Under the pieces are notes generated by a model that searched no databases, was not told the origin of the DNA, and saw only the letters and a program-made list of their open reading frames with translations. This document shows, one piece after another, positions 25,206 to 63,724 of a DNA stretch of 64,000 nt. This stretch comes from Octopus vulgaris. Lineage: Eukaryota. A program made the position numbers and the translations under genes. The stretch covers positions 19,778,001 through 19,842,000 of the forward strand of contig OX597842.1 of assembly GCA_951406725.2 (NCBI GenBank), read 5' to 3'. Positions within the stretch are counted from its first letter, which is position 1. Every line of letters starts with the position of its first letter.

Positions 25206-25834
25206 TAATATAACCTCCACACACACACACCTTGGTATTGACCCCCTCATCCTTTGCCCTTGTGGCAAATAAAAGAAACCCTTATATACAACTATCAACT
25301 GAGTCCATTGTGAAGATGGCCCCTCTACTTTCCTTCAACCAGGAAGGGCAACCAGTTTTTATCTGCTCGGGGCCCATGGCAAAAGGGATCATATAGTGGA
25401 CATGTCTGAAAGGGCTGAAGACCAGCAACTGCCATTTTGTCAAAACCCTAATAAACTTTATCAGGTTTCACTTGAAGAGGAAAATCAGGGTGGAGAGGTA
25501 AGTGCTGGCTTCCAAGCAGTTTGTTGAAAGGTGGGTGAGAGAGGTGAGCATTACCTGAGTGAATGGGCCTTCTCTTAGAGTGTACCTGTATATTGGAGAG
25601 GAAAGACTGGGAGAGGGTATCCACCCTGGTGGTCAGGGAGACCTTGGATTTACTGGGCTTTCGTAACGCGTAGCCCTTGACAGTCCCCCCACTATCAGGG
25701 ATCTTACTTTGAATTTCTTTTATTCTTTGTATGACTATTTACATGCTAAAACCCACACTGGACCCTCCCGAATGTTTTGCTTTGTGTTAGCCCTCTGTGG
25801 TCAATAAAGAAATTATTATAAATCATTTCCTTAC

Positions 25835-26083
25835 TCTTTATCTCCAAATCAATGTCTGCAGCATTAAGGTTGTCATCATCAAATTTCCAAGTCAAACATT
25901 CCTTAGTTACGTTTCTGATCCAAAGCGTGGAGGTATCTTCTAAATGAGTCACTTTATACTGAGAGCTATTAACGCATGTCCTGTCACATTCATATTTATA
26001 ATTGTGGCACTTCCAAACCACCGGTCGTTTCATATCAGATATTGTTATCGAAAGGGTGAGGTTTCCATTGAGCACAGCAGGTC
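25835..26083 (-). CDS. Gene A Ig-like exon A2 (249 bp, phase 1-1)
   Basis: Acceptor gatttctttatttcag, donor gtaagg. Open frame (x)PAVLNGNLTLSITISDMKRPVVWKCHNYKYECDRTCVNSSQYKVTHLEDTSTLWIRNVTKECLTWKFDDDNLNAADIDLEIK. Confidence 0.88.
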
Positions 26084-26416
26084 CTGAAATAAAGAAATCA
26101 GTTAAGAAGTTTGCTTCCAAATCATACGGTCCTGGGTTCAGTCCCACTACACAGCACCTTGGGAAAGTGTCTTCTACTACAGCATCAACCTTGTGAGTGG
26201 ATTTTCAAGATGGAAATTGAAAGAAGCCCATTCTATGTATGTGTGTGTGTGTGTATGTGTGCATGTGTATGTATATGTGTGTGTGTGTATATATATATAT
26301 ACATACACACTTGTGTGTTTCAAAGACTTGTGAGTGGATTTGATAGATGGAAACTAAAAGAAGCCTATTGTATGTATGTGTGTGTGTGTATATATATATT
26401 TATATGTATGTGTGTA

Positions 26417-26484
<68 letters not shown>

Positions 26485-26486
<2 letters not shown>

Positions 26487-27780
26487 AGCAACTTACCCAG
26501 GAATGTCATACCGAGTCTTACATGGAAACGGAGCTACAGATAAATTTGAAGTAAAAACAGGAGTTCGACAGGGCTGTATCCTTACTCCCTTTTTATTTCT
26601 ATTAGTTATAGATTGGATTATGAAGGAAACTACGATTGAAAGCCAAACAAGCATTGAATGGACGGATGTGGAAGCTGTAGAAGATCTCGACTTTGCAGAT
26701 GATAGGGGGCTGCTTTCACAAACATAGCCAAATGCAAAATAAAATGTCAAAATTAGAAGCAATAGCTGCCAAACTAGGATTGAAAGTCAACCTCAAATCA
26801 AAAATTATGCACGTTAATGAAGTAAACAATGAATGTATTAAACTAGAAACTGGTGAACTAGAGGATGTAGCCGAGTTTATGTATTCAGGTAGTAAGATAA
26901 CGTTTTCAGGTGGCACCAACGAAGATATTAAGGTGAGAATAAGTAAGGCAAGGACCGTTTTTCACCTGTTAAAGAAAGTATGGAGCGCAAGTGTAATTTC
27001 AATAAAGAACAAAATAACCTCTCGAAAGAGCTGTTTTTCACTCCTGCTCCAGAGCGTCGGCTGCGGGGTCACTCCGAAAAGCTCTATCTGTGACGATTTC
27101 ATCTCAATCGAAGGAGAGGGCCCTTCTCCATCCGGGTTGCGGTTCCCTGGAATAAGCTGCCGGACGAGATAATGAAGATGCCGACGACCGCTCGGTTCAA
27201 AGTCTCCCTTGTCCACAAATGGCCTGAACTCTTTGCATGAACACCACCCTGTACATAACTCCATGTCCCCCTACATGGCCTTGCTTTTTTGCTTTTTGAG
27301 CCCAAAAATTATCTTAACTTAAGTTAAAATTTTTAACACGAACGTAAAAGCGGTGTTATTGTATGGGGCTGAGACATGGCAAACAACAGTGAAATCAAAT
27401 AAGCAAATAAAACCATTCATCAACAGATGCTTGCGTAGTATACTTAAAATTAGATGGCCCAAACACATAAGCAATATGGAGCTATGGCAAAGAACAAATC
27501 AAGTTTCGATTAGGGAGCAAATATTTAAGAAAAAGTGGAAGTGGATTGGTAGCACAATTAGAAAAGACACACTAAATGTAGCAAAAAGTGTTTAAAGTGG
27601 AAACCGGTTGGATGTAAAAAGAAAGGTAGGCCTAAGAACTCCGTGGCGTAGATCAACACAAAAGGAACTAGAGAAAGGGGGACATTCATGGCAGAGTATA
27701 AGTACAGACGCGAAATATTATGCAACATGAAATTCAATTATGAGTGGCCAATACTCTGCGTTGGAGGGTCAAAGGTAGGA
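26485..27780 (+). mobile_element. RTE-clade LINE fragment carrying a nested CR1-type 3' fragment (about 27015-27300)
   Basis: GVRQGCILTPFLF, DLDFADD, RISKARTVF, LLYGAETW. The insert encodes an RRRG.FS.RVA.PWNKLPDEI-type CR1 C-terminus. Paralogous copies lie at about 30030-30620, 53730-55420 and 59478-60700. Confidence 0.9.
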
Positions 27781-28412
27781 AAGAAGAATATATTTACCAC
27801 TTTGGGTGATGTTATACTTTTGTGTCCTTGACAAACCTGTAAAGATGAAAACAAAAATTTTGATTTTTGAAAATTTTGAAGTCCATTGTGAAGATGGCCC
27901 CTCTACTTTCCCTCAACCAGGAAGGGCAACCAGTTTTTATCTGCTCGGGGCCCATGGCAAAGGGGATCATACAGTGGACATGTCTGAAAGGGCTGAAGAC
28001 CAGCAACTGCCATTTTGTCAAAACCCTAATAAACTTTTTCAGGTTTCACTTGAAGAGGAAAATCAGGGTGGAGAGGTAAGTGCTGGCTTCCAAGCAGTTT
28101 GTTGAAAGGTGGGTGAGAGGGGTGAGCATTACCTGAGTGAATGGGCCTTCTCTCAGAGTGTACCTGTATATTGGAGAGGAAAGACTGGGAGAGGGCATCA
28201 ACCCTGGTGGCCAGGGAGACCTTGGATTTTGTGGGCTTTCTTTATGTGTGGCCCTTCAAAGTCCCCCTTCTATCAGGGGTTTTACTTTGACTTTCTTTTA
28301 TTCATTGTATGACTTTTTACATGCTAAAACCCACACTGGACCCTCCCGAATGTTTTGCTTTGTGTTAGCCCTCTGTGGTTAATAAAGAAATTATTATAAA
28401 TCATTTCCTTAC

Positions 28413-28661
28413 TCTTTATCTTCAAATCAATTCTTCCAATATTAAGGTTGTCATCTTCGAATTTCCAAGTCGAACATTTCTTAGTTACTTTTCTGATCCA
28501 AAGCTTGGAGGTATCTCCACTATGTATTACTTTATAGTAAGGGCCATCAGCGCATGTCCTGTCACATTCATATTTATAATTCTGGCACTTCCAAACCACC
28601 GGTCGTTTCATATCAGATATTGTTATCGAAAGGGTGAGGTTTCTATTGAGCACAGCAGGTC
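28413..28661 (-). CDS. Gene A Ig-like exon A1 (249 bp, phase 1-1)
   Basis: Same splice sites as A2. (x)PAVLNRNLTLSITISDMKRPVVWKCQNYKYECDRTCADGPYYKVIHSGDTSKLWIRKVTKKCSTWKFEDDNLNIGRIDLKIK. Confidence 0.88.
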
Positions 28662-28939
28662 CTGAAATAAAGAAATCAGTTAAGAAGTTTGCTTTTCAAT
28701 CATACGGTTCTGGGTTCAGTCCCACTACACAGCACCTCGGGAAAGTGTCTTCTACTACAGCATCAGCCTTGTGAGTGGATTTTCAAGATGGAAATTGAAA
28801 GAAGCCCATTGTATGTATATGTGTGTGTATATATATACATACACACTTGTGTGTTTCAAAGCCTTGTGAGTGGATTTGATAGATGGAAACTGAAAGAAGC
28901 CCATTGTTTATATATATGTATATATATATATATATATGT

Positions 28940-29320
28940 AAATAGAAAATTATTATTTCTAAGTCCCTGAATGAGAAACATTCAGTAACATTACTCGAGA
29001 GTAAGGATTATTTGCCAGCATAATATGGCAGTCCTAGTTAGGGTGATTGTTACTGTTATCTAGCCCTAGGAAACACTGCCTCCAGCTGGGTATATGACAC
29101 GCTATCTATGTCCTATGGGATGCTAAACTCCCTTGTTTGAAAATATAAGGATGCAGCAAGTGTGTCATATAGCCTGCTGGAGACGATATTTCCTAGGGCT
29201 AAGGAACAGTAACAATCGTCCTAACCAGGACTGCCACATTATGTTGGCAAATAATCTCTACCCTAGAGTACTGTTACTCAATGTCTTTTGTTCAGAGATT
29301 TAGAAATAATTTTCTATTTG
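28940..29320. repeat. Palindromic element inside the duplicated unit (also at about 52160-52540 and 58733-59112)
   Basis: Imperfect inverted arms of about 165 bp: AAATAGAAAATTATTATTTCTAAG... and ...TTAGAAATAATTTTCTATTT. Confidence 0.8.
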
Positions 29321-31219
29321 TTAGATCAGAGACTTTGTGTCACTTTGGAAAGTATATATTTTGGACAAGAGTTTAGTGGAGTCATCTGTAGCCGAGCAGT
29401 TATTCTGTGCTGATGAAGGGAAATAACCCAGAGACCATTGGTATGCAGATAGATGATGTTTCCTAAGACTAAATTTACAGTATCATTCGTCCTAACCAAG
29501 ACTGCCACATTATGTTGGCAAATATATATATATATAAGTTCAGCAAAAATTTAGATTCAAATGAATATGGTACTTAATTTAGATGCACCAGAATTTTGTA
29601 TGGTGTTATCCATAGAAATCCGTGGGGTGATTATAATGAAAATAAGCAATAAGAATGACTCCGGTAATTTGGTACGATCGTTTCGTACTACATCATTTTA
29701 TTAAATTTTGTAAGTATTACAACAGTTTTAAAATACTGAGCACTCATCAGCCAATTATAGAGGTTTTCTGTTAATACAAACATTTTCATATCACGTGGCA
29801 ACATTATAGAGAAGGTAGATATATAGACAAAGATGTGGATTTAAATTTTAAGAACGTATGATGTAGTGGAACAACCAAATCTTAGTACCTCATATGTTCT
29901 TAAAATTTAAATCCACATCTTTGTCTATATATCTACCTTCTCTATAATGTTGCCACTTGATTTGATAACTTTTTTATTAATGGAAAGCCTCTATAATTGG
30001 CTGATGAGTACTCAGCATCTTATAGAGGGATTAGGCTATTATCAGCTCCCGGAAAAGATTTTAACAGGATACTTTTAGAGATGATGAGGACAGCAGTAAA
30101 GAAGAAGCTGGATTTAGGAAGAACCGTTCATGTGGAGATCAAACCGCCACTCTTGGTATCATTGTAGAGCAAAGCGCAGAGTGGAATGCACTCTATCTGC
30201 GACAATTTCATCTCAATTGAAGGAGAGGGGCCTTCTCCGTCCGGGTTGCGGATCCGTGGAATAAGCTGCCGGACGAGATAGTGAAGATGCCGACGACCGC
30301 TCGATTCAAAGTCTCCCTTGACCACAAATGGCCTGAACTCTTTGCATGAACACCACCCTGTACATAACTCCATGTCCCCCTAAATGGCCTTGCTTTTTTT
30401 GCTTTTTGAGCCAAAAAATTAACTTAACTTAGCTTAACTTGGATATAGAAAGAAAGGTAGGCCTAAGAACTCGTGGCAGAGATCAACAAAAAACGAACTA
30501 GAGAAAGGGGGACATTCATGGCAGAGTATAAGTACAGAGGCGAAAAATTATGCAACATGGAATTCAATTATGAGTGGCCTATACTCCGCGTTGGAGGGTC
30601 AAAGGCAGGAAAGAAGAATATATTTACCACTTTGGGTGATCTTATACTTTTGTGCCCTTGACAAATCTGTAAAAGACGAAAACAAAAATTTTTGATTTTA
30701 AGATGAAGTAATTCAAAATAATGTGAATAAATGAACATTACATTTCACAGTAATTTGATTGCTAAAGGATTAAACCAGCCATATCTGTTTTATGTTCTAA
30801 GTGGCTGGGTCCAGCCCCTCACACCTACCCTACAATGTCAGTCTAAAAATAAACAATCACATCATCAAAATGTCAAAACTACAAGATAACGAATGATTAA
30901 TTCAAAAACCAAGTCTAAATGAGCATTACATTAAACGGAATAAACTGATTGCTAACGAGTTAAAGTAGCCATACCTGGCACAAAGATTCTACCTGTTTCG
31001 TGTTTAAACTGGTAATGGGTCATCCTTTTACACCTGTCTTACAATGTCATTCTAAAAATGAACAGACAAGGACTGCTATGTAAAGAAGTGCTGATCTTTA
31101 ACTGCGGAGGCAATCTGTGGAAGAGGTGGACCCTGAAAGGTGCAGGACAAAACGGTGGAACATGAGGGCTTTGGATGTTGAGGCTGACATGTATTGATAA
31201 GTGACTGCGACTGCCAAAA

Positions 31220-31400
31220 AAAAACTCATATTTCTCAGAAACTGAAAAAATTTGTTCTGAAGGAGTGTAAAATGTTTGGGTTCTCCCCAGGAAATATTGG
31301 AAACATAAATGAAATTCCCACGTATTTCGATAAACCAGGAAACACTACAGCAGACACAGAGGGAAACGAAGCTGTTAAAGTAAAAACATCTGAGAATTTA
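31220..31400 (+). mobile_element. pogo/Tigger-like transposase fragment
   Basis: IGNINEIPTYFDKPGNTT...GNEAVKVKTS resembles the IGNMDETP.FD.P...G.K.V..KTT motif. Confidence 0.55.
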
Positions 31401-31419
31401 TTAAATAATGACGGGTTGT

Positions 31420-32483
31420 GGTTAAGAAAACGAAGATCATGTCAACAGCAGCCACAACAAACATCAGCATCAAGATCGATAACGAAGAGATCGAAGTGGT
31501 TGATCATTTCATCTTCCTTGGCTCCAAAATAAATCGAGATGGTGACTGCACTCCAGAAAAAAGATGGCGGATGGATGGAAGCACTCCGTCGGTTACGACG
31601 ACGAGGGTTCCGGTTGATCTGATCGACGGAACAGCCTGCTCGTGAAATTAACGTGCAAGTGGCTGAGCACTCCACAGACACGTGTACCCTTAACGTAGTT
31701 CTCGGGGATATTCAGCGTGACACAGAGAGTGACAAGGCCGGCCCTTTGAAATACAGGTACAACAGAAACAGGAAGTAAGAGTGAGAGAAAGTTGTGGTGA
31801 AAGAGTACAGCAGGGATCACCACCATCCCCTGCCGGAGCCTCGTGGAGCTTTAGGTGTTTTCGCTCAATAAACACTCACAACGCCCGGTCTGGGAATCGA
31901 AACCGCGATCCTATGACCGCGAGTCCACTGCCCTTACCACTGGGCCATTGCGCCTCCACAAGACGGCGGATAGTACTAGGCAGAGAGGCAATGGTCAGCA
32001 TGAGCAGGGCCTGGAAGAGTAGAGACATCAGACTCGCTACCAAATGCAGATTGGTGAATGCAATTGTCTTCCCAATAGCAACATATGGATGCGAGACCTG
32101 GACACTAAAGAAAGCTGACCAGAAGAGAATTAATGCATTCGAGCTTTGGTGTTGGAGAAGACTTTTACGGATTCCATGGATAACGAGGCTCACCAATGGA
32201 GAAGTTCTTAAGCAGATCAGGCCAAAAATGTCACTAGAAGCTAGGATCACCAAGCATAGATTGGCATATTTCAGTCATATTATGCGGAGAAAATCCCTGG
32301 AGAAGGACATCATGCTTGGAATGGTCAGTGGCAAGAGAGGAAGAGGCCGACCAAGAACCCACTGGCTTGACACCATCAAGAGTGATACTGGAATGAACAT
32401 AGCCAATCTGAAAAAGCGACCCAGGATAGAACTGACTGGAGGACACTGATCCATCGAGTGACCGAGAGTCGACTTTGACTGAG

Positions 32484-32520
<37 letters not shown>

Positions 32521-32735
32521 TTTGGTCATATGATGCGGAGAAAATCCCTGGAGAAGGACATCATGCTCGGAATGGTCAGTGGCAAGAGAGGAAGAGGCCG
32601 ACCAAGAACCCACTGGCTTGACACCATCAGGAGTGATACCGGAATGGACATAGCCAGTCTGAAAGAAGCGGCCCAGGATAGAACTGACTGGAGGACACTG
32701 ATCCATCGAGTGACCGAGAGTCGACTTTGACTGAC
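31420..32735 (+). mobile_element. RTE (BovB-like) LINE 3' region, 3' end duplicated (about 32515-32735)
   Basis: VVDHFIFLGSKI, IVFPIATYGCETWT, AFELWCWRRLLRIPW, GKRGRGRPR..WLD.I. Confidence 0.9.
31573..31959 (-). mobile_element. Full-length SINE family 2 inserted in the RTE
   Basis: 12-bp TSD AAGA(T/C)GGCGGAT at 31561-31572 and 31960-31971; tRNA-like head. Confidence 0.92.
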
Positions 32736-33529
32736 CGGATAGATAGACAGTGGTTTTGAAAGATAGTGGGTGATTCTCAAAGACAGTACCAAGATTAGTG
32801 TTGTATGGGGTGGGTGATGGGTATGAGGACTCACTGTTAATTAACCAGGGTGGGATATAGGGAATGTTTTGGGACCTGAGGTTCTGTAAATAAGTTGTTA
32901 ATGAGGCAGATAATTTATAAAGTTAATCCAAACATGAAAGCACAAAAAAAAACACAACACGAGGACATGGAACAAATATAGTATTATTGGACGCTCAGGA
33001 AAGAAGGAGGGTTTAATGTTTCGAGTGGAGCTCTTCATCGGAAACAAATGAGAAGGAAAGATCAAGAGAAGGGAAGACAGAGAATTTATAAGTGGGATTG
33101 TGGTGGAAAATCATGAATTTTGGAAATTTTCTTGCATAAGATGCATCAACAAAATTGGGAAAATCCCTACCAAAACAAAGAAAATCCTCCTTATGTGAGT
33201 GACCCCATTCCAGACCCCTGTGCACCTGAGTAAGTTTGCCTTAACAAAAATAAGTTATGGAAAGAAATTAAATAAAATATAAATAAAACTTACAGAGAAA
33301 TGTTACAAACAATAAGCAGAACAAGATCCATTTAGCCATGATCTGAAAAAATAATTTTCAAAAGCTGCAAAATAACAAAGTTTATAGCCCAGGGTCCGAG
33401 GCTGGTCAGGCTGAGAAAAACAAACAGTCAAAATGTCATCAGTCACTCTTTAATAGATTTATGGTCAAGCCTGTGGCATTGGAGATCTTATTCTTAACTA
33501 TTTCGAATACTACAGAACGCTGTACAGTA

Positions 33530-34018
33530 GAGACAAGTGCAGTTTGAACCAGGTTGGTATCAAAAGGCTTAAGAATTGTTTCTCTATTATATATTTGTCG
33601 AGATGTTCTGTGTTTCTTTCAATTAATTCTAAATATAACAAAGATCTTAGAAAAATAACTTAGTTACCATTTAGCTAGTGTAAGTAACATAAATTGCGAC
33701 TAAGGTTTGGCGGAAGATTTTAATTCAAAACTTATGAAAACAAGACATTTGTACTACAGAGCCAGAGCTGGTTTTAGTCAGGTTGGTAATGAAAGGGTTA
33801 AGAATTGTTTCTGTCGAGATGCTCTGTGTTTCTTTCAATTATTTTAAATATAACAAAGACTTTAGAAAAAATAACTTAGTTATCATTAAGCTAGTGTTAG
33901 GAACATAAATTGTGACTAATGTTTGGTGGAAGATTTTAATGCAAAACTTAAGAAAACAAGACATTTGTACTACAGGGTCAGAGGTGGTTTCGGTCGGGTT
34001 GGTAACAAAAGGGTTAAT
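33530..34018 (+). repeat. Tandem units of about 220-230 bp ending in AAAGGGTTAA (piggyBac-type MITE end)
   Basis: GGTTGGTA..AAAGG(G/C)TTAA at about 33572, 33801 and 34018. Confidence 0.5.
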
Positions 34019-35963
34019 GTAAAATTTGAAGAGAGACAGATTTAAACTTTGCACTGTTTCTGCCCCCCCCCCTTTTAGTTTTATCAATTACTATACAACA
34101 CTAAAGCAACTGCATTTTTTGTCTCATTCTTTCTTCTTGATGAGTGAAAACAAATACCAAATTACAGGTATTTGTATAATTGTGGCTTTCCAGGTAGAAT
34201 CCTGGTTTAAACAGTCCTTATAATTTCAGAAAATTTTTGCAACACACACAAATGAATATGATTATTGAAAAGACAGCATGGTGTTTCACTTTCTGGATCA
34301 TAAAATGAAATATCATCTTAATCATTAATTCAAGCGAATCAATGTCAGAAAATAGCATATCGATATATTACTGATGTTCACCTTAATTTTACGAAATAAT
34401 CTTTAATATATATCTTGTGTTTTTATTACAATAAAAACCAATATTTACAACAGAATCTCTTCTTTTTGGACAAACCTTATAGTTGTGGCTGGATGCAATT
34501 GGAAGTTTCAAAAACCAACTGGGAAATACAAACAACGAAAAGAACTTAGTTTCTGAAAGAAAAAAAGAAAAGATATTATTTCAAAAGTTTTACTGAAAAG
34601 GTACTGATTTTTAAAAAATTCAAAAAGTAAAAAGGTTATGAGGGGTTATATGGGGTACTTAAACGAAAATTCCACCAAAAATCAAATTTTAAAACCAGTT
34701 TTTTTTAACAGCATAAATGCTTTGATGGGGATAAAAATATTGAAAAACATTGAATACAGGTTAGAGCGAGGAAGAAACAAGAAAGGTGGTTGTGGGATGT
34801 GTTAGAAACAACAGGCAGATCTCCCTTAAATGACACACCTTTCTTTACTCATAACTTTCTGACAAATGGATATTAATGGATATATTGGAATTTGTTGTGA
34901 AAAAGTTTTCCGAGGGTGGGGCGAAAAGTTTTGGAAAATTCACATCAGTCGGCTTTATTTCCTCATAACTTTTGGAAAAATGGATATTTCTTTAGTGGAA
35001 TTTTCAACAAATATCATTCGGATTGTGAAGGTGACGATTATATCAGAATTTAATATGTAAACAAAATTTGTGGGCTCACACACATACATAATTACATACA
35101 CATCGTGAATTGAAACTTGAAATTTTGATAGCACAATGTTATATCTGTCAGTATGTGTGTGTGTGTGCAAACCTATCATATTTTTTTTTTCATAATAGAC
35201 TTCAATATTACTCTTTGCTCTTTTACTTATTTCAGTCATTTGGCTGCGGCCATGCTGGAGCACCGCCTTTAGCCGAGGAAATCGACCCCCAGGACTTATT
35301 CTTTGTAAGCCCAGTACTTATTCTATCGGTCTATTACGTACATGTATATGAAAGATAAGGAGTGTAGATGTGTGTTTGGGTGTGATTAACTAGAAGTAGA
35401 TACAGCTGAATAGGGCGTGGTTGCGCGTACATCCGTTTTCTTTCATAAACAGGGACACACATCTTTTACTTTCTCCTCCTCTCACTCAGAAGCAAATATC
35501 GCCTTCCACTCATCATCAAAATAAAAGAAAATAAAATAATTTTTTACGGGAATTAACGAACAATCCGCTGATCAAATTCGACGCTTCTGCAGCCAAAGCC
35601 GAAAGATTTCCAGACGTAATTCTTCAGTTTGGGTAAACAACGTCAGTCACTGACACAAACTTCTCTTATGGCACAAACGAAGAGGCGGTACTACTTGAGT
35701 ATAGACGTCACGGTGCGCACTTGTGTAGTCATGACTAGTCGATCCATACTTTGAGTTTTATTTACTTTGATTTTAAAAAATTCACTAACACTAACCCTGA
35801 CCCTACTTTTAGCCTTTCGTCATTTTTTCTTCATTGATAAATTAATTTAATTGTTACGCGTGTGTCTAAAATTATTCGTTTTGTTTTGAGACTCACGTGT
35901 ATTGTTTAAACTATTTTCCATTGCTTAAGAAAGAAAAAAACCCAAAGCAATGGAAAATAATTT

Positions 35964-38597: not shown

Positions 38598-38629
38598 TTT
38601 TAAAACACACACACACCCGAATACAGGCA

Positions 38630-40447: not shown

Positions 40448-40503
<56 letters not shown>

Positions 40504-42946: not shown

Positions 42947-43728
42947 GGATCTTTTCGTTTTGAACGGCAGACAATTTCTAGTTAACTAAACACTTTTAAA
43001 CTTCGTATACTGGTAGAATGTGTCAAAATAAAACATTTTTTTCTCTTGGCTTTCTTGAGAAAATTGTAATTTGTAAGTTTAACGTAGTTTAATTTTTCGA
43101 ATTTTAACCAATCCTATGCTCTCTTTTGAGTTAAAATCATTTGCTGCGTCTAAAACTGATACAGCATCCTGTAACTAACCCTAATCCTCCCCCTAACCCT
43201 TACCTTAATTTTTTTTCTTAATTATTAAATTAATTTAATTGTTACGCGTGTAAAGAAAATTAAAGCAATGGAATTAAATTAATTTAACAATTAAGAAAAA
43301 AAATTAGGGTTAGGGTTAGGGTCAGGTTTAGGGTTAGTTACAGGATGTTGTCTAAGTTTTAGACGCAGCAAATGATTTTAGTTGAATGGAGGTAATTGAT
43401 TGGTTAAAATTGCCGAAATGCTCGGATTTTCAGACGAAATATCTTACAAACTATAGAATTTTCTCAATAAAACCAAGAGAAAAAGATGTTTTATAAACAC
43501 ATTCTACCAGTATACGAAGTTTAAAAGTGTTTAGTTACGTGGAAATTATTTTAAAAAACTGCCGTTCAAACCGAAAAGATCCCAAATATCTTACAAACTA
43601 TAGAATTTTCTCAATAAAGCCAAGAGAAAAAGATGTTTTATAAACATATTCTACCAGTATACGAAGTTTAAAAGTGTTTAGTTAACTAGAAATTGTGTTG
43701 ACACGTGCCGTTCAAAAGGAAAAGATCC
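42947..43728. mobile_element. GGATC-TIR MITE (Merlin-like), palindromic, with internal TTAGGG-like repeats
   Basis: 8-bp TSD TCCGTTGT/CCCGTTGT. (CCCTAA)-like run at about 43175-43205 and (TTAGGG)-like run at about 43304-43337. Confidence 0.85.
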
Positions 43729-44284
43729 CCCGTTGTCATTGCTTGGTAAAGCGAACCAGACCCCATTAACTTTTGGTATTCCTGCAGATAGCACAATACT
43801 AGATTTCAGTGGTACATCGTCAATTACAATTAAAACCACGGGCCACGAAAGAAATCGTTTTACTGTCATGTTAGCTTGTATGGCTGACGGTATAAAACTT
43901 AAACCTTATATAATATTCAAACGTAAGACAGCACCCAAAACCGTGGAATTTCCAACAGGGATTATTGTTAGATATCAACCCAGGAGTGGCTGTGTGGTAA
44001 GTAGCTTGCTTACGAACCATATGGTTCCGGGTTCATTCCCACTGCGTGGCACCTTGGGCAAGTGTCTTCTACTATAGCCATGGGACGACCAAAGCCTTGG
44101 GAGTGGATTTGATAGACGGAAACTGAAAGAAGCCTGTCGTATATAATGTATGTGTGTGTGTTTATGTGTTTGTCCCCCCACCAACATCGCGGACTATACT
44201 CGAGGATTTACGGTAGATAAAAACAGAACAGGCACACACACACACAAGAACAAGCACGCACACACTATGGAGAAACATGAAATC

Positions 44285-46830: not shown

Positions 46831-46859
46831 TCAGGAAGGTTTCCAGTAATACAGGTCAG

Positions 46860-47840
46860 GGATCTTTTCGGTTTGACCGGCAGTTTTTAAAAATAATTTC
46901 CACGTAACTAAACACTTTTAAACTTTGTATACTGGTAGAATGTGTTTATAAAACATCTTTTTCTCTTGGCTTTATTGAGAAAATTCTATAGTTTGTAAGA
47001 TATTTGGGATCTTTTCGGTTTGAACGGCAGTTTTTTAAAATAATTTCCATGTAACTAAACACTTTTAAACTTCGTATACTGGTAGAATGTGTTTATAAAA
47101 CATCTTTTTCTCTTGGCTTTATTGAGAAAATTCTATAGTTTGTAAGATATTTGGGATCTTTTAGGTTTGAACGGCAGTTTTTAAAAATAATTTCCACGTA
47201 CCTAAGCACTTTTAAACTTTGTATACTGGTAGAATGTGTTTATAAAACATCTTTTTCTCTTGGCTTTATTGAGAAAATTCTATAATTTGTAAGATATTTG
47301 GGATCTTTTCAGTTTGACCGGCAGTTTTTTAAAATAATTTCCACGTAACTAAGCACTTTTAAACTTTGTATACTGGTAGAATGTGTTTATAAAACATCTT
47401 TTTCTCTTGGTTTTATTGAGAAAATTCTATAGTTTGTAAGATATTTGGGATCTTTTCGGTTTGACCGGCAGTTTTTAAAAATAATTTCCACGTAACTAAG
47501 CACTTTCAAACTTCGTATACTGGTAGAATGTGTTTATAAAACATCTTTTCTTCTTGGCTTTATTGAGAAAATTCCATAGTTTATAAGATATTTGTTGTTT
47601 TTTCCTTCAATTTCTGCAATTTCAACCAATCAATGACGTCTCTTGAGGTGAAAACATTCTCTGCCGTATGAATATGTCCCTCGTTTAAGAAACAGATTGG
47701 GTTTATTAACATTTCTGAAGAAATAAGATACCTTCCCCGCACCCCTAACCTAACCCTAGAGCAGATTGAAATGCAATAGATCGATACTAGGGTCATAATT
47801 ATGGGTGACATTTTGATATCACACTGCTAGAAAAAAATCC
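46860..47840. repeat. GGATC-TIR MITE with 5 tandem terminal units of about 147 bp
   Basis: GGATCTTTT starts at about 46860, 47007, 47154, 47300 and 47448. Confidence 0.9.
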
Positions 47841-50374: not shown

Positions 50375-50508
50375 TTATTTCTTAAAATATTTGCAGCAGA
50401 AGAAAGAGTGTCCGACAAGGATTATAGCAAGGCTGAGTATGCCAAGAATGATTCCAACAATCTCGAGTGTTCTGAGGGGTCTTGATCCATTAGGTTCAGG
50501 TTACGGAT
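50375..50508 (-). CDS. Gene B terminal TM exon with a premature TAA at its third codon
   Basis: Acceptor tttattgtttgtcaactgcag. (N)P*PEPNGSRPLRTLEIVGIILGILSLAIILVGHSFFCCKYFKK*, with the stop at 50501-50503. Confidence 0.8.
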
Positions 50509-51639: not shown

Positions 51640-51888
51640 TCTTTATCTTCAAATCAATTCTTCCAACTTTAAGGTTGTCGTCTTCAAATCTCCAAGTCAA
51701 ACATTCCTTAGTTACGTTTTTGATCCAAAGCTTGGAGGTATCTCCAAAATGAGTCACTTTATAGTCAGGGCCATCAGCGCATGTCCTGTCACATTCATAT
51801 CTATTATCCTGGCAAATCCAAGCCACCGGTCGTTTCATGTGTGGTATATATATCACAAGGTTGAGATCTCTATAGAGCTCAGCAGTTC
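51640..51888 (-). CDS. Gene B Ig-like exon B3 (249 bp, phase 1-1)
   Basis: (x)TAELYRDLNLVIYIPHMKRPVAWICQDNRYECDRTCADGPDYKVTHFGDTSKLWIKNVTKECLTWRFEDDNLKVGRIDLKIK, with AG and GTAAG boundaries. Confidence 0.88.
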
Positions 51889-53188: not shown

Positions 53189-53225
<37 letters not shown>

Positions 53226-53399: not shown

Positions 53400-53560
53400 C
53401 TTCATGGAACATGATTAGTTTCTTGCAGACTATTCATTCCATGACTTTGCTGATGTCTGAGGTCAGAGAGACAGGCCTATAATTTTTAGCACCTGCCCTG
53501 CTTCCTCCTTTATGAATACAGCATATTATTCCTTCTTTCAGTTTGTCTGGGAGCTTACCA
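53400..53560 (-). mobile_element. CR1/Jockey-type RT fragment
   Basis: LPDKLKEGIICCIHKGGSR....NYRPVSLTSDISKVME. Confidence 0.75.
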
Positions 53561-56500
53561 ATTAAAAGAAGCTGCAGTGGCATTAGGAAGGGCATCCAGC
53601 TGTAGAAACACTGCCAGATCAGGCAGGAGCCTGGTGCAGCCTCCTGGCTTCCCAGACCCCGGTCGAACCGTCCAACCCGTGCTAGCATGGAAAGCGGACG
53701 TTAAACGATGATGATGATGATGATGATGAAATAGCAGTAGAAATGTTTCATCCATTATTTTCTAAGATAGGGCAGGAAGAAAATGTGCCTAATGACTGGA
53801 AAGAGGGACTCATTGTGAAATTGCCAAAAAAAGGAGATTTAAGCTTTTGCGGAAATTATAAACGGATTATGCTATTATCAGCTCCCGGAAAAGATTTTAA
53901 CAGAATACTTTTAGAGATGATGAGGACAGCAGTTGACAAATTGTTGTGTAAAGAAGAAGCTGGATTTAGGAAGAGATCAAATCGCCACTCTTTGTATCAT
54001 CGTAGAGCAAAGCGCAGAGTGGAATGCACCGATTTATTGAATTCGAAAAAGCATTCGATAGTGTAGATAGGGAAGGCTTATTGAAAATTATGCAGCACTA
54101 TGGCATACCAGACAAGTACATATCTATAATAAGAGCAACTTACCAAGGAATGTCATGCCGAGTCTTGCAAGGAAACGGAGCTACGGATAAATTCGATATA
54201 AAAACAGGAGTTCGACAGGGCTGTATACTTTCTCCCGTTTTATTTCTATTAGTCATAGATTGGATTATGAAGGAAACTACGATTGAAAGCCAAACAAGCA
54301 TTGAATGGACGGATGTGGAAGCTGTAGAAGATCTCGACTTTGCAGATGATAGGGGGCTGCTTTCACAAACATAGCCAAATGCAAAATAAAATGTCAAAAT
54401 TAGAAGCAATAGCTTCCAAACTAGGATTGAAAGTCAACCTCAAATCAATAATTATGCACGTTAATGAAGTAAACATCAAATGTATTAAACTAGAAACTGG
54501 TGAACTAGAGGATGTAGCCAAGTTTATGTATTCAGGTAGTAAGATAACGTTTTCAGGTGTCACCGACGAAGATATTAAGGTGAGAATAAGTAAGGCAAGG
54601 ACCGTTTTTCACCTGTTAAAGAAAGTATGGAGCGCAAGTGTAATTTCAATAAACAACAAAATAACCTGTCGAAAGAGCTGTTCTTAACTCCTGCTCCAGA
54701 GCGTCAGCTCGGAGTCACTCCAAAAAGCTCTATCTGTGACGATTTCATCTCAATCGAAGGAGAGGGGCCTTCTCTGTCAAGGTTGCAGATCCGTGGAATA
54801 AGCTGCCGGACGAGATAGTGAAGATGCCGACGACCGGTCGGTCCAAAGTCTCCCTCGACCACAAATGGCCTGAACTCTTTGCATGAACACCACCCTGTAC
54901 ATAACTCCATGTCCCCCTACATGGCCTTTTGCTTTTTGCTTTTTGAGCCAAAATATTAACTTAAGATTTTTTAACACTAATGTTAAAGCGATGTTCTTGT
55001 ATGGGGCTGAGACATGGCGAACAAAAGTTAAGTCAAATAAGCAAATACAACCATTCATCAACAGATACTTGCGTAGTATACTTAAAATTAGATGGCCCGA
55101 ACACATACGCAATATGGAACTATGGTAAAGAACAAATCAAGTTTCGATTAGGGAGCAAATATTTAAGAAAGAGTGGAAGTGGATAGGTAGCACGATTAGA
55201 AAAGACACACTAAATGTAGCGTAAAGTGTTTAAAGTGGAAACCGGTTGGATGTAAAAAGAAAGGTAGGCCTAAGAACTCGTGGCGTAGATCAACACAAAA
55301 GGAACTAGAGAAAGGGGGACATTCATGGCAGAGTATAAGTACAGAAGTGAAAAATTATGAAACATGGAAGTCAATTATGAGTGGCCTATACTCCACGTTG
55401 GAGGGTCAAAGGTAGGAAAGAAGAATATATTTACCACTTTGGTAGATCTTATAAATGCTATCACTTGAGAAACCTGTAAAAGATGAAAACAAAAATTTTG
55501 ATTTTAAGATGAAATATTTCAAAATAATGTGAATAAATGAACATTATATTTCACAGTAATTTGATTGCTAAATGATTAAACCAGCAATATCTGTTTTATG
55601 TTCTAAGTGGCCGGGTCCAGCCCCCACACCTACCCAACAATGTCAGTCTAAAAATAAACAACCACATCATCAAAATGTCAAAACTACAAGATAATGAATG
55701 ATTAATTCGAAAACCAAGGCTAAATGAGCATTACATTAAACGGAATAAACTGATTGCTAACGAGTTAAAGTAGCCATACCTGGCACAAAGATTCTACCTG
55801 TTTCGTGTTTAAACTGGTAATGGGTCAGCCTTTTACACCTGTCTTACAATGTCATTCTAAAAATGAACAGACAAGGACTGCTATGTAAAGAAGTGCTGAT
55901 CTCTAGCTGCGGAGGCAATCTGTGGAAGAGGTGGACCCTGGAAGGTGCAGGACAAAACGGTGGAACATGAGGGCTTTGGATGTTGAGGCTGACATGTATT
56001 GATAAGTGACTGCAATTCCTGGGGATTTGCTCTTCTTCATAAGATATGTCAAGCTAATGGAAATCAAGGATGTGGCCAGTGTCGGTAATTAGTAAAAGGC
56101 ACCTGTGCCGGTGACGTGTAATTTATAAATCTTTCATCAAAACTTTATTGAGAATTTTCAAAATGTGCTCCATCGGCCCCCTGGATATTTCAAATGTATC
56201 TGTAGACTTGTGAAACACATTTGGAAGTATTTGAGGAGTTTATCTTCTGCACTGCTAACTGAATGCATTCTTTAAGTTCAGCTAAAAGATTGCTCCATCT
56301 GGGGCATTGTGGGAAAGAAATTAATTGCAATCGTATTGAAAAAAGTTGTCATGGACAGATAAGGAATGAAAATAAAATTATAAACAAAATTAAAAATTTA
56401 ATCACTTAACATATATTAAATATGTGAAGCAGAAACAAAAAGGACCTTTAAAAAAAGGGTCCAATTTCACTGAAATAGATAATTAATTCTGGGACAGTCT

Positions 56501-58197
56501 GTATTGAAAACACTTAGCCCTACTCAAATGACCCTACACTCTGAAATCTTTACCAAGAACAAAGTCCATGGGGTAAAGAGTGGCTATAAGGGGAATCCAG
56601 GTGGGCAGATATGGAGATAACGATGTAAATAAACAAATAAAACTGAGTGGGTTAGATATACATCCATGCGTACACGTTAATAGAGAGGAAGCAAAGACTG
56701 AAAAATTTCAGACGGAGAATATTCAAGCATCAGAAATCTGAATTAAATATTAACAGAGCAAACTTACACAGACTAGAAAGGCACAGAAAATCAAAGGGGA
56801 GAATGTATGGTGTTACAGCTCCTTTCTTGGCGATCGGGGTTACTTCATCTTTGGTAGATGTACCATCCATACTCACAAATAGGTCTCACTTTTTTTCACC
56901 AAAAATTTAGATAAAAATCAGGGGTACAAACTATCCAATAGATATTACAGGGATCTGAAGTGGTGTATCGGTAGTCCATGGCATACCCTGGACCTGGGCT
57001 TTTCAGTTTTAAAATTGTTATGGAAACTTTTCTGCAATGTTTACTAGAAAGCAGAAACTGGAAGTTTGGTATTTGGTATTTTTTTGACATCCACTCACCC
57101 CAATCTTTAGTTTAAAAATTTTAATAATTGCAAACCCTACTTACAAAGTTATAGTAAGAGTTATCAATAGGCACAGAAGTGGCTGTGTGGTAAGTAGCTT
57201 GCTTACGAACCACATGGTTCCGGGTTCAGTCTCACTGTGTGGCATGTTGGGCAAGTGTCTTTTACTATAGCCTCGGGCCGACCAAAGCCTTGTGAGTGGA
57301 TTTGGTAGACAGAAACTGAAAGAAGCCCGTCGTATATATGTATATATATATATGTGTGTTTGTGTGTCTGTTTGTCCTCCAAATATCGCTTGACAACTGA
57401 TGCTGGTGTGTCTACGTCCCTATTACTTAGCAGTTCGGCAAAAGAGAACCGATAGAATAAGTACTAGGCTTACAAAGAATAAATCCTAGAGTCGATTTGA
57501 TCGACAAAAGGCGGTGCTCCAGCATGGCCACAGTCAAATGACTGAAACAAGTAAAAAGAGAAAGAGAATATAACCCCACCCACACACACACCTTGGTATT
57601 GACCCCCTCATCCTTTGCCCTTGTGGCAAATAAAAGAAACCCTTATTATATACAACTATCAGCTGAGTCCATTGTGAAGATGGCCCCTCTACTTTCCCTC
57701 AACCAGGAAGGGCAACCAGTTTTTATCTGCTCGGGCCCCATGGCAAAGGGGATCATACAGTGGACAAGTCTGAAAGGGCTGAAGACCAGCAACTGCCATT
57801 TTGTCAAAACCCTAATAAACTTTTTCAGGTTTTACTTGAAGAGCAAAATCAGGGTGGAGAGGTAACTGCTGGCTTCCAAGCAGTTTGTTGAAAGGTGGGT
57901 GAGAGAGGTGAGCATTACCTGAGTGAATGGGCCTTCTCTCAGAGTGTACCTGTATATTGGAGAGGAAAGACTGGGAGAGGGCATCCACCCTCGTGGTCAG
58001 GGAGACCATGGATTTTGTGGGCTTTCTTTACGTGTAGCCCTTGAAAGTGCCCCCACTATCAGGGGTTTTACTTTGACTTTCTTTTATTCTTTGTATGACT
58101 TTTTACATGCTAAAACCCACGCTGGACCCTCCCGAATGTTTTCCTTTGTGTTAGCCCTCTGTGGTTAATAAAGAAATTATTATAAATCATTTCTTAC

Positions 58198-58446
58198 TCT
58201 TTATCTCCAAATCAATTTTTCCAACATTAAGGTTGTCATCATCAAATTTCCAAGTCGAACATTTCTCAGTTACTTTTCTGATCCAAAGCGTGGAGGTATC
58301 TCCAAAATGAGTCACTTTATACTGAGAGCTATTAACGCATGTCTTGTCACATTCATATTTATAATTGCGGCACTTCCAAACCACCGGTCGTTTCATATCA
58401 GGTATTGTTATCGAAAGGGTGAGACATCCATTGAGCACAGCAATTC
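58198..58446 (-). CDS. Gene B Ig-like exon B2 (249 bp, phase 1-1)
   Basis: (x)IAVLNGCLTLSITIPDMKRPVVWKCRNYKYECDKTCVNSSQYKVTHFGDTSTLWIRKVTEKCSTWKFDDDNLNVGKIDLEIK, with AG and GTAAG boundaries. Confidence 0.88.
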
Positions 58447-61400
58447 CTGAAATAATGAAATCAGTTAAGAAGTTTGCTTCCAAATCATATGGTCCCGGGT
58501 TCAGTCCCACTACACTGCACCTTGGGAAAGTGTCTTCTACTACAGCCTGTGTGGATTTGCTAGATGGAAACTGAAAGAAGCCCATTGTATGTATCTGTGT
58601 GTGTGTGTATGTATATGTGTGTGTGTATATATGTATATACATACACACTTGTGTGTTTCAAAGCCTTGTGAGTGTATTTGATAGATGGAAACTGAAAGAA
58701 GCCCTTTGTTTATATATATGTATATATATATGTAAATAGAAAATTATTATTTCTAAGTCACTGAATGAGAAACATTCAGTAACATTACTCGAGAGTAAGG
58801 ATTATTTGCCAACATAATATGGCAGTCCTAGTTAGGGTGATTGTTACTGTTATCTAGCCCTAGGAAACACTGCCTCCAGCTGGGTATATGACACATTATC
58901 TATGTCCTATGGGATGCTAAACTTCCTTGTTTGAAAATATAAGGATGCAGCTAGTGTGTCATATAGCCAGTTGGAGACGATGTTTCCTAGGGCTAAGGAA
59001 CAGTAACAATCGTCCAGACCAGGACTGCCACATTATGTTGGCAAATAATCTTTACCCTAGAGTACTGTTACTCAATGTCTTTTGTTCAGAGATTTAGAAA
59101 TAATTTTCTATTTTTTAGATCAGTGACTGTGTGTCACTTTGAAAAGTATATATTTTGGACAAGAGTTTAATGGAGTCATCTCAAGCCGAGCAGTTATTCT
59201 GTGCTGATGAAGGGAAATAACACAGAGACCATTGGTATGCAGATAATGTGCTGTATAACCAGCTGGAGATGATGTTTCCTGAGACTAAATAACAGTACCA
59301 TTCGTCCTAACCAGGACTGCCACATTATGTTGGCAAATAATCTTTATTTTATATATATATATATATATATATGTATACACACAAAATAAGAAAATGGAGG
59401 AATAGATTCCTTTCAATCATCAACTTCCAGATAATACCAATTCATATAATTTATTAACTAATTATTTAGATTTAATAGGACAGGGCTGTATACTTTCTCC
59501 CGTTTTATTTCTATTATTCATAGATTGGATCATGAAGGAAACTACGATTGAAAGCCAAACAAGCATTGAATGGACGGATGTGGAAGCTGTAGAAGATCTC
59601 GACTTTGCAGATGATATAGCGCTGCTTTCACAAACATAGCCAAATGCAAAATAAAATGTCAAAATTAGAAGCAATAGCTGCCAAACAAGGATTGAAAGTC
59701 AACCTCAAATCAAAAATTATGCACGTTTATGAAGTAAACTTTGAATGTATTCAACTAGAAACTGGTGAACTAGAGGATGTAGCCGAGTTTATGTATTCAG
59801 GTAGTAAGATAACGTTTTCAGGTGGCACCGACGAAGATATTAAGGTGAGAATAAGTAAGGCAAGGACCGTTTTTCACCTGTTAAAGAAGGTATGGAGCGC
59901 AAGTGTAATTTCAATAAAGAACAAAATAACCTCTCGAAAGAGCTGTTCTTCACTCCTGCTCCAGAGCGTCGGCTGCGGGGTCACTCCGAAAAGCTCTATC
60001 TGTGACGATTTCATCTCAATCGAAGGAGAGGGGCCTTCTCTGTCCGGGTTGCGGTTCCGTGGAATAAGCTGCCGGACGAGATAGTGAAGATGCCGACGAC
60101 CGCTCGATTCAAACTCTCCCTTGACCACAAATGGCCTGAACTCTTTGCATGAACACCACCCTGTACATAACTCCATGTTCCCCTACATGGCCTTTTGCTG
60201 TTTGCTTTTTGAGCCCAAAAATTAACTTAACTTAAGTTAAGAATTTTTAACACTAACGTAAAAGTGGTGTTATTGTATGGGGCTGAGACATGGCAAACAA
60301 CAGTCAAGTCAAATAAGCAAATACAATCATTCATCAACAGATGCTTGCGTAGTATACTTAAAATTAGATGGCCCCAACACATACGCAATATGGAGCTATG
60401 GCAATGAACAAATCAAGTTTTGATTAGGGAGCAAATATTTAAGAAAAGGAGGAAGTGGATTGGTAGCACAATTAGAAAAGACACACTAAATGTAGTGAAA
60501 AGTGCTTTAAAGTGGAAACCGGTTGGATATAGAAAGAAAGGTAGGCCTAAGAACTCGTGGCATAGATCAACACAAAAGGAACTAGAGAAAGGAGGACATT
60601 CATGGCAGAGTATAAGTACAGAGGCGAAATATTATGCAACATGGAATTCAATTATGAGTGGCCTATACTCCACGTTGGAGGGTCAAATGTAGGAAACAAG
60701 AATATATTTACCACTTTGGGTGATCTTGTAAATGTTTGCACTTGAGAAACCTGTAAAAGATGAAAACAAAAATTTTTGATTTTAAGATGAAATAATTCAA
60801 AACAATGTGAATAAATGAACACTATATTTCACAGTAATTTGATTGCTAAATGATTAAACCAGCAATATCCGTTTTATGTTCTAAGTGGCCGGGTCCAGCC
60901 CCTCACACCTACCCTACAATGTCAGTCTAAAAATAAACAATCACATCAGCAAAATGTCAAAACTACAAAATAAAGAATGATTAATTCAAAAACCAAGACT
61001 AAATGAGCACTACATTAAACGAAATAAACTGATTGCTAACGAGTTAAAGTAGCCATACCTGGCACAAAGATTCTACCTGTTTCGTGTTTAAACTGGTAAT
61101 GGGTCAGCCTTTTACACCTGTCTTACAATGTCATTCTAAAAATGAACGGACAAGGACTGCTATGTAAAGAAGTGCTGATCTCTAACTGTGGAGGCAATCT
61201 GTGGAAGAGGTGGACCCTGGAAGGTGCAGGACAAAACGGTGGAACATGAGGGCTTTGGATGTTGAGGCTGACAAGTATTGATAAGTGACTGTGATTTCTG
61301 GGGATCTGCTCTTCTACAGAAGATATGTCAAGCTAATGGAAATCAAGGATGTGGCCAGTATCGGTAATTAGTAAAAGGCACCTGTGCCAGTGACGTGTAA

Positions 61401-63475
61401 TTTATAAATCTTTCCTCAAAACTTTATTGAGAATTTTCAAAATGTGCTCCATCGGCACAATGGAAATTTCAAATGTATCTGTAGACTTGTGAAACACATT
61501 TGGAAGTATTTGAGGAGTTTATCTTCTGCACTGCTAACTGAATGCATTCTTTAAGTTCAGCTAAAAGATTGCTCCATCTGGGGCATAGTGGTAAAGAAAT
61601 TAATTGCAATCGTATTGAAAAAAGCTGTCATGGACAGATAAGGAATGAAAATAAAATTATAAACAAAATTAAAAATTTAATCACTTAACATATATTAAAT
61701 ATGTGAAGCAGAGACAAAAAGGGTCTTTAAAAAAAAAGGTCCAATTTCACTGAAATAGATAATTAATTCTGGGACAGTCTGTATTGAAAACACTTAGCCC
61801 TACTCAAATGACCCTACACTCTGAAATCTTTACCAAGAACAAAGTCCATGGGGTAAAGAGTGGCTATAAGGGGAATCCAGGTGGGCAGATATGGAGATAA
61901 CGATGTAAATAAACAAATAAAACTGAGTGGGTTAGATATACATCCATGCGTACACGTTAATAGAGAGGAAGCAAAGACTGAAAAATTTCAGACGGAGAAT
62001 ATTCAAGCATCAGAAATCTGAATTAAATATTAACAGAGCAAACTTACACAGACTAGAAAGGCACAGAAAATCAAAGGGGAGAATGTATGGTGTTACAGCT
62101 CCTTTCTTGGCAATCGGGGTTACTTCATTGTTGGTAGATGTACCATCCATACTCACAAATAGGTCTCACTTTTTTTCACCAAAAATTTAGATAAAAATCA
62201 GGGGTACAAACTATCCAATAGATATCACAGGGATCTGAAGTGGTGCATCGGAGGTCCATGGCATACCCTGGACCTGGGCTTTTCAGTTTTAAAATTGTTA
62301 TGGAAACTTTTCTGCAATGTTTACTAGAAAGCAGAAACTGGAAGTTTGGTATTTGGTATTTTTTGACATCCAGTCATCCCAATCTTTAGTTTAAAAATTT
62401 TGATAATTGCAAACCCTACTTACAAAGTTATAGTAAGAGTTATCAATAGGCGCAGAAGTGGCTGTGTGGTAAGTAGCTTGCTTACGAACCACATGGTTCC
62501 GGGTTCAGTCTCACTGTGTGGCATGTTGGGCAAGTGTCTTCTACTATAGCCTTGGGCCGACCAAAGCCTTGTGAGTGGATTTGGTAGACAGAAACTGAAA
62601 GAAGCCCGTCGTATATATGTATATATATATATGTGTGTTTGTGTGTCTGTTTGTCCTCCAAACATCGCTTGACAACTGATGCTGGTGTGTCTATGTCCCC
62701 GTTACTTAGCAGTTCGGCAAAAGAGAACTGATAGAATAAGTACTAGGCTTACAAGGAATAAATCCTGGGGTCGATTTGATCGACAAAACGCGGTGCTCCT
62801 GCATGGCCACAGTCAAATGACTGAAACAAGTAAAAAGAGAAAAAGAATATAACCCCCACACACACACACCTTGGTATTGACCCCCTCATCCTTTGCCCTT
62901 GTGGCAAATAAAAGAAACCCTTATTATATACAACTATCAGCTGAGTTCATTGTGAAGATGGCCCCTCTACTTTCCTTCAACCAGGAAGGGTAATCAGTTT
63001 TTATCTGCTCAGGGCCCATTGCAAAAGGGATCATACAGTGGACATGTCTGAAAGGGCTGAAGACCAGCAATTGCCATTTTGTCAAAACCCTAATAAACTT
63101 TGTCAGGTTTCACTTGAAGAGGAAAATCAGGGTGGAGAGGTAAGTGCTGGCTTCCAAGCAGTTTGTTGAAAGGTGGGTGAGAGAGGTGAGCATTACCTGA
63201 GTGAATGGGCCTTCTCTCAAAGTGTACCTGTATATTGGAGAGGAAAGACCGGGAGAGGGCATCCACCCTGGTGGTCAGGGAGACCTTGGATTTACTGGGC
63301 TTTCGTAACGCGTAGCCCTTGACAGTCCCCCCACTATCAGGTCTCTTACTTTGAATTTCTTTTATTCTTTGTATGACTTTTTACATGCTAAAACCCACAC
63401 TGTACCCTCCCGAATGTTTTCCTTTGTGTTAGCCCTCTGTGGTTAATAAAGAAATTATTATAAATCATTTCTTAC

Positions 63476-63724
63476 TCTTTATCTCCAAATCAATTTTTCG
63501 AACGTTAAGGTTGTCATCATCAAATATCCAAGTCAAACATTTCTTAGTTACTTTTTTGATCCAAAGCGTGGAGGTATCTCCATCCTGTGTCACTTTATAG
63601 TCAGGGCCATCAGCGCATGTCTTGTCACATTCATATTTATAATTGCGGCACATCCAAACCACCGGTCGTTTCATATAAGGTATTGTTATCGTAAGGGTGA
63701 GACATCCATTGAGCACAGCAATTC
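63476..63724 (-). CDS. Gene B Ig-like exon B1 (249 bp, phase 1-1)
   Basis: (x)IAVLNGCLTLTITIPYMKRPVVWMCRNYKYECDKTCADGPDYKVTQDGDTSTLWIKKVTKKCLTWIFDDDNLNVRKIDLEIK, with AG and GTAAG boundaries. Confidence 0.88.

Follow-up and report, generated by a model that had tools for sequence, protein, structure and literature searches.

Gene content and exon structure

The window (the whole stretch of 64,000 nucleotides analysed here, C29 19,778,001-19,842,000 of Octopus vulgaris) contains one complete immunoglobulin (Ig)-domain gene, A, and part of a second, B. The flanking sequence was examined to 19.70-20.48 Mb (780 kb), and 16 genes with 26 Ig exons were mapped between C29 19.75 and 20.48 Mb, one further close copy lying outside this 16-gene cluster at 22.36 Mb. 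A protein search of the genome returned 80 matches, mostly on C29. Older subfamilies of the same domain were encountered at C29 0.33, 7.2-7.6, 16.5, 18.2-18.6, 19.59 and 27.4 Mb and on other contigs; they account for about 50 more exon matches, none of which has a stop.

The genes follow a single plan, in which a leader exon is followed by one to four pairs of a 39-nt micro-exon and a 249-nt Ig exon, and then by an end exon. Both the micro-exons and the Ig exons are in phase 1-1 with AG/GT ends; exons encoding Ig-superfamily domains are as a rule in phase 1-1, and the 249-nt exons conform to it. No stop codon occurs in any of the 26 Ig exons, all of which have canonical splice sites and encode distinct proteins, and there is no N in the 780-kb region.

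The five domains on which a first-pass annotation of the window was based are 249-nt phase-1 exons of the two genes, gene A comprising A1 and A2, and gene B comprising B0 (beyond the window), B1, B2 and B3. Gene A, on the minus strand, consists of a signal-peptide coding exon (33294..33339, 46 nt from the ATG, phase 1), a first 39-nt micro-exon encoding the end of the leader and the predicted A strand (30628..30666), domain 1 (exon A1, 28413..28661), a second micro-exon (27798..27836), domain 2 (exon A2, 25835..26083) and a last coding exon for a stalk, a transmembrane helix and a very short basic tail (24355..24479). For gene B, the window lacks the leader, the first micro-exons and domain B0, which are located at C29 19.844-19.852 Mb. 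They are followed, on the minus strand of the window, by domain 2 (B1, 63476..63724), a micro-exon (60712..60750) preceding domain 3 (B2, 58198..58446, with a fifth cysteine at residue 7 and a VNSSQY block), a micro-exon (55435..55473) preceding domain 4 (B3, 51640..51888, of a divergent TAELYRD type and the least mosaic), and a transmembrane-type exon (50375..50508) with an in-frame TAA at 50502-50500, so that gene B is predicted to encode a secreted product or to be a pseudogene. The inverted duplicate of gene B, g10, has three domains.

Four kinds of end exon were distinguished among the 16 cluster genes: a helix followed by a short basic tail (5 genes, gene A among them), the same exon with a stop just past the hydrophobic stretch (4 genes), an exon with a stop two codons in (3 genes, including gene B), and a different exon with a hydrophobic C-terminus at its end (4 genes). 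Judging from these ends, products of the second and fourth kinds may be GPI-anchored and those of the third kind secreted. All three genes with a TAELYRD-type last domain carry the early stop; in O. sinensis models this domain type precedes an intact helix. Extra leader exons of a second type, found upstream of g5, g6 and g9 (C29 19.97, 19.99 and 20.156 Mb), suggest alternative first exons.

Current gene models at the locus are fused and unnamed. Database models of 694 and 869 aa were rejected as fused, and models P0001, P0015 and P0016 either combine genes B and A with zinc-finger fragments or link a receptor gene to histone H2B, which is likely a mis-annotation; multi-isoform models of O. 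sinensis may be fused as well. A single Dscam-like gene was also rejected as a model of the locus, given 16 leader-to-end units, a separate micro-exon for each Ig exon and database models that string the domains in tandem; some exon skipping is possible.

Expression and relatives

In two sequencing runs guessed, not recorded, as RNA, read depth stays within exon bins, at about 1,000-2,500 compared with about 10-20 for unique flanks. One of these runs (X1) shows splice joints from the signal-peptide exon of gene A to its first micro-exon and from a micro-exon to an Ig exon (26082-30627, CT..AC ends). Both depth and joints may stem from paralogues. The cluster is apparently expressed. Between window positions 25700 and 26180, no public run has more than 0.42 of the sampled words; high polymorphism, runs from other species or filtering may account for this.

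An unnamed O. vulgaris prediction contains the A2 peptide without a mismatch, and O. sinensis LOC115225115/6 resemble this peptide at 75-80%. A profile search gave 41 matches, among which Octopus species and Argonauta score high, and abalone and cuttlefish low; 16 unnamed matches were looked up, and the named ones are from cephalopods or abalone. A literature search of CC-licensed PMC and bioRxiv texts found no study of this receptor family, the locus identifier giving 0 matches, and the genes apparently form an undescribed octopod Ig-receptor cluster. In ten O. sinensis domains, only 7 residues are unseen in the O. vulgaris copies; 6 of the 10 are 6-11 residues away from every single copy, and most can be painted as mosaics, so that the O. 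sinensis models hold the same residues in mostly new combinations. The O. sinensis match of the divergent copy g15d1 differs from it at 1 residue.

Duplications, repeats and neighbouring genes

A paralogue of at least 93% identity exists for about 80% of the region. Direct and inverted segmental duplications of 6-14 kb (93.5-99.4% identity) contain receptor genes, and the window itself holds a tandem 5.28-kb duplication of a domain unit (54214..64000; 54214-58722 against 59479-64000, 95.5%). Core histone genes are interleaved with the receptor genes in shared segmental duplications (C29 19.72-20.37 Mb): motif searches of the 780 kb gave 13 H2B, 10 H2A, 9 H3 and 9 H4 matches and none for H1, an H2B and an H2A gene being located in the window at 444-1462. 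These histone repeats may act as substrates for mispairing. Zinc-finger arrays also occur among the cluster genes, and the window has two C2H2 arrays on the minus strand, with 8 and 22 fingers in open frames (4475-5275 and 7240-9538).

TA/CA microsatellites and fragments that we take to be SINE-like lie directly upstream of the Ig exons (26190-26484, 28765-28944, 58586-58738 and 63864-63916), where the remnant adjoins the splice acceptor. Other repeats of the window are an eight-copy tandem array of a 181-nt SINE-like unit (15148-16599), a 147-nt satellite (10751-11109, 43437-43729 and 46859-47594) that forms a far longer array near C29 20.275-20.284 Mb, and an 800-nt AT-type microsatellite (13567-14378).

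Predicted fold of the domain

AlphaFold2 was run on a three-domain O. sinensis member using 22 sequences. The model (mean pLDDT 78.5, pTM 0.36) has three beta-sandwiches and a C-terminal helix, each sandwich being formed of two sheets with strands A/A', B, C, C', (C''), D, E, F and G, in a strand naming that is our own. The best structural matches were pIgR, obscurin, TCR, VHH and CD8 (Z 10.2-10.8), and single domains superposed on V- and I-set domains with an rmsd of 2.5-2.6 A over about 90 residues. The domain is thus predicted to have the V-frame of the Ig superfamily (V/I-set, the two not being separable on this model). At the sequence level, the Pfam I-set match reached only E=0.096, and a PDB sequence search gave no match at E<=1. 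The canonical B-F cysteines are absent and the C-strand Trp is kept; four cysteines at exon residues 25, 32, 36 and 62 (end of strand C, C'-C'' and E-F loop) are invariant in 26 of 26 copies, none of them being central in strand B or F; a fifth, at residue 7, is present in 6 copies.

The motifs that distinguish the copies were placed on this model. IAVLNGC would run from A' to B, the ADGP/VNSS block would lie in the C''-D region, SKLWI in strand E, NVTKECL and KCSTW in the E-F loop, and DLKIK in strand G. In A2 the VNSSQY block (25956..25973, minus strand; predicted C''/C''D region) creates an N-glycosylation sequon, and swaps between copies turn such sequons on or off at residues 7, 38, 49 and 57.

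Conflicting groupings among the domain exons

The first-pass annotation had claimed that these motifs group the five domains in incompatible ways. A six-frame search recovered the motifs in frame on the minus strand with the groupings described, and the conflict exceeds chance: 9 of the 10 possible 2|3 splits are represented (B1+B2 at 11 sites, A1+B3 at 8, A2+B1 at 7, A1+A2 at 6, A2+B2 at 5 and the others at 1-3), and the best tree fits only 19 of 46 two-state informative sites. Since SKLWI, DLKIK and KCSTW each correspond to a one-base difference and NVTKECL to two bases, these four motifs are weak when taken alone; the weight rests on the VNSSQ block (5-6 linked bases), an intron block with 6 linked bases, and the run shared by B1 and B2.

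The intron block is a 35-nt variant found after A2 (25649..25683, plus strand) and after B1 (63291..63325, plus strand), and was thought to be common to these two units only. Within the window this is correct, the variant being exact twice; genome-wide, it is exact in 6 of 26 copies (A2, B1, B0, g10d2, g11d1 and g11d2) and split or part-recombinant in others. A direct A2-B1 exchange was rejected, as the partners are spread over the cluster, and no such event is needed because the closest partners of A2 at the block are g4d1 and g8d2.

For the DNA tests, the distant copies and g16d1 were left out throughout (26 units); g13d1, with a non-homologous downstream intron, was also left out (25 units), as was g14d1 (long branch, same intron problem) in the silent-site, GENECONV-like and 3SEQ-like tests (24 units). 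The PHI test, which the first-pass annotation had proposed, was significant for the five units (p=2e-4 over 49 informative sites) and, at the same p=2e-4, for the 25 units, where the downstream intron alone was also significant. The intron-only test among the five was not significant (p 0.22-0.48), nor was the exon-only test in the 25 units (w=100, p=0.49), as expected once conflict saturates. Restricted to 91 silent sites in 24 units, ignoring pairs within <=3 nt, PHI gave p=1e-4, and silent incompatibility rose with distance (0.12, 0.15, 0.25, 0.32 and 0.38 from 4-10 to 81-160 nt). The far-minus-near contrast was 0.12, against a maximum of 0.021 in 120 simulations on a single maximum-likelihood tree (GTR+I+G).

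In the GENECONV-like test on the 24 units, identical runs were long enough to reach p<0.05 in 99 of 276 pairs, where about 14 would be expected; 7 pairs were globally significant, none of them between two of the five domains. With the 3SEQ-like test, 20 of the 24 units were significant mosaics after Bonferroni correction over 12,144 triplets, including A1, A2 and B2; B3 and g10d3 were not significant, and B1 and B0 missed the cut-off in the short alignment (0.054 and 0.094). A1 and A2 have zero private variants. AU tests on six segments, each of which preferred its own tree, were not relied on, being biased towards the fitted tree and including a partly non-homologous unit. A single tree thus fails to explain all segments, as judged by the silent-site PHI test, the simulations and the 20 mosaic units, and these sequence comparisons support reading the patchwork as exchange among paralogous domain exons. 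The idea that loop types in particular are recombined holds for the exchange itself and fails for SKLWI and DLKIK, which are strands on the model; that recombined loops yield new specificities is a suggestion of the first-pass annotation.

Substitution pattern in exons and introns

Pairwise dN/dS was 1.77 (0.99-3.98) for the five domains and 1.53 (0.92-2.84) for the 25 units, with intervals that touch 1. When each variant was counted once, 112 replacement and 20 silent changes were obtained (ratio 1.84, p=0.005), and the density of replacement changes is 2.5x the intronic density. The distance to the nearest paralogue has a median of 10 per 250 nt in the exon, against 1-4 in intron windows. 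Diversifying selection on the Ig exons is probable from these counts.

Probable crossover and conversion-like tracts

The sequence of B1 agrees with that of B2 for about 3.5 kb upstream and with that of B0 for about 2.8 kb downstream. Its diagnostic sites favour B2 by 66:8 before exon nt ~105 and B0 by 71:13 after it (Fisher p 8e-22), which places the putative breakpoint at exon nt 103-112 (63613..63622, minus strand). Because of the order B0-B1-B2 and the single switch of partner, B1 is best explained as a chimera of a B2-like 5' part and a B0-like 3' part, produced by an unequal crossover within the exon that would have added one domain. Gene conversion, which had been put forward alongside segment shuffling, is therefore not supported as the sole process.

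Bounded tracts of about 250-400 nt were found in A1 and g11d1. Upstream, A1 is almost the same as g5d1; from exon nt 121 to +371 (28291..28541, minus strand) it is g12d1-like, and beyond that g8d1/g5d1-like again. Diagnostic sites are 22 vs 1 in exon nt 121-249, and 4 vs 0 and 8 vs 1 the opposite way in the flanks. Copy g11d1 is g8d1-like, then g11d2-like from nt 80 to ~471, then g8d1-like. Both tracts fit conversion, donor and recipient not being polarised, and two successive crossovers would look alike.

The mosaic structure very probably results from DNA exchange between paralogous copies, likely in the germline and by unequal crossover together with conversion, with selection likely retaining the combinations. 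Under this model, the misaligned segmental duplications would pair in meiosis, crossovers would gain or lose whole units of micro-exon and Ig exon, so that genes come to have 1-4 domains, and tracts between tens and a few hundred bases long would exchange residues of the surface, glycosylation sequons and a free cysteine, the new exon combinations then being retained by selection.

Alternatively, the exchange could be a programmed, exon-targeted and templated diversification (VLR- or chicken-Ig-like), possibly somatic too, with the cluster members as donors. Long stable intron partners do change at or near the exon: 23 of 30 comparisons between intron segments about 1 kb apart retain the nearest partner, against 10 of 22 across the exon (comparisons that are not independent), the conflict between intron sites is 0.55 when they span the exon vs 0.32, and microsatellites lie directly upstream of the exons. 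However, breakpoints fall in introns as well, every copy is a complete gene with leader and end exons rather than a donor cassette, and selected meiotic recombinants predict the same pattern, which fits selection for exonic recombinants, a hotspot also being possible. We consider such a programmed process very unlikely.

Slightly less probable still is an artefact of assembly or polishing, in which collapsed repeats or haplotype switches would have joined paralogues. The extent of duplication (about 80% at >=93%) would favour such errors, no public run contains more than 0.42 of the words sampled from the A2 stretch, and the matching O. vulgaris protein models are not independent of the C29 assembly. 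Haplotype switches, named by the first-pass annotation as the outcome that would undo its reading, are nevertheless unlikely breakpoints, since the phylogenetic signal shifts over 20-80 nt and the O. sinensis models, from another assembly (which could be misassembled too), reshuffle the same residue alphabet into other combinations; the region has no N, and the 26 exons are intact with canonical splice sites.

A single duplication history in which a few selected or hypermutable sites underwent the same point mutations repeatedly and convergently has the lowest probability of all and is largely refuted, despite the three one-base motifs, the excess of replacement changes and a short-range incompatibility of 0.38 in the exon vs 0.19 in introns, because the decay with distance is the same at silent and intronic sites, single-tree GTR+I+G simulations never reach the observed contrast, 5-7 linked bases travel together and flanks of kilobase length change partner at a single position. 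Such mutation may still contribute at single sites, and as the exon has only 7 informative silent sites, part of its homoplasy may be recurrent mutation.

Comparison with known systems

Germline exchange between clustered paralogues has precedents. In the mammalian CEACAM/PSG genes, as presented in the sections of PMC2832619 used here, gene conversion and recombination occur among the ligand-binding domains of clustered Ig genes. The octopus cluster resembles them, as far as those sections go, in its clustered Ig genes of variable domain number, in its predicted secreted, GPI-anchored and short-tailed transmembrane forms, and in GPI forms that would arise through a stop in the transmembrane exon; it differs in having one domain type throughout, with four non-canonical cysteines, and in an exchange that gives unique mosaics rather than paired look-alikes (PMC2832619). 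The resemblance is one of analogy only, no homology to CEACAM being detected in the PDB sequence search (E<=1) or among the named profile matches, which are from cephalopods or abalone. No member with an ITIM or ITAM was found in the cluster, whose end exons stop within a few residues of the hydrophobic segment.

With the Alr complex of Hydractinia, as covered by the part of PMC9546547 consulted, the octopus genes share an organization as an invertebrate complex of single-pass proteins, with 1-3 Ig-like domains in Alr encoded by one exon each, and the absence of the canonical B-F cysteines. Alr proteins differ in carrying an Fn3-like segment and a long tail that often includes an ITAM/ITIM (PMC9546547, same part). 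The octopus domains keep the C-strand Trp and need a 39-nt micro-exon each, and an allorecognition role like that of Alr is hypothetical for the octopus genes. Both the Fn3-like segment and a long cytoplasmic tail are absent from the octopus cluster genes. Homophilic binding specific to the allele and extreme allelic polymorphism are further marks of Alr.

The Sp185/333 (SpTransformer) genes of the sea urchin are likewise, in the portion of PMC5103432 considered, tightly clustered in segmental duplications flanked by short tandem repeats, with mosaic coding sequences, inferred recombination and conversion, and few broken genes; KIR and plant R clusters are summarised there as similar systems. 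Sp185/333 proteins are not of the Ig fold and vary by presence or absence of elements, whereas the octopus exons are fixed at 249 nt and vary by blocks of substitutions (PMC5103432, same portion). Biomphalaria FREPs and arthropod Dscam are further cases of invertebrate diversification of Ig-domain proteins, as stated in the passages of PMC13428168 considered.

Cephalopod immune and self-recognition receptors are poorly known. The octopus proteins lack the fibrinogen domain of FREPs, and the genes lack an alternative-exon array of the Dscam kind sharing one leader and one membrane exon, each having its own. Receptors that diversify somatically, such as FREPs and VLRs, show sequences in somatic cells that the germline lacks, and a counterpart of this in the octopus would be hypothetical. 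The cluster is compact, young and apparently expressed, and bears the signature of a recognition locus (mosaic exons, excess of replacement changes, variation in copy number and anchor), which makes it a concrete target for asking whether octopuses have a hypervariable receptor complex. By analogy with the systems above, its products are most likely receptors or decoys with variable ligand binding that would act in host-microbe or self/non-self recognition; as the tails are only a few residues long, signalling, if any, would pass through a partner. A stronger proposal, which we regard as rather unlikely, is that the cluster is a hypervariable recognition complex with exchange focused on the Ig exon, giving each animal, and perhaps each cell lineage, its own combinations of surface patch, glycan and anchor; if true, this would be an undescribed cephalopod locus of allorecognition or anticipatory immune receptors. 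By these comparisons the octopus cluster works like CEACAM/PSG and Sp185/333 and, in anatomy, like Alr, and is a member of none of them, since no homology, no signalling tails and no Fn3-like segment were found. The evolutionary mechanism is already known from CEACAM, KIR and Sp185/333; the family is apparently new.
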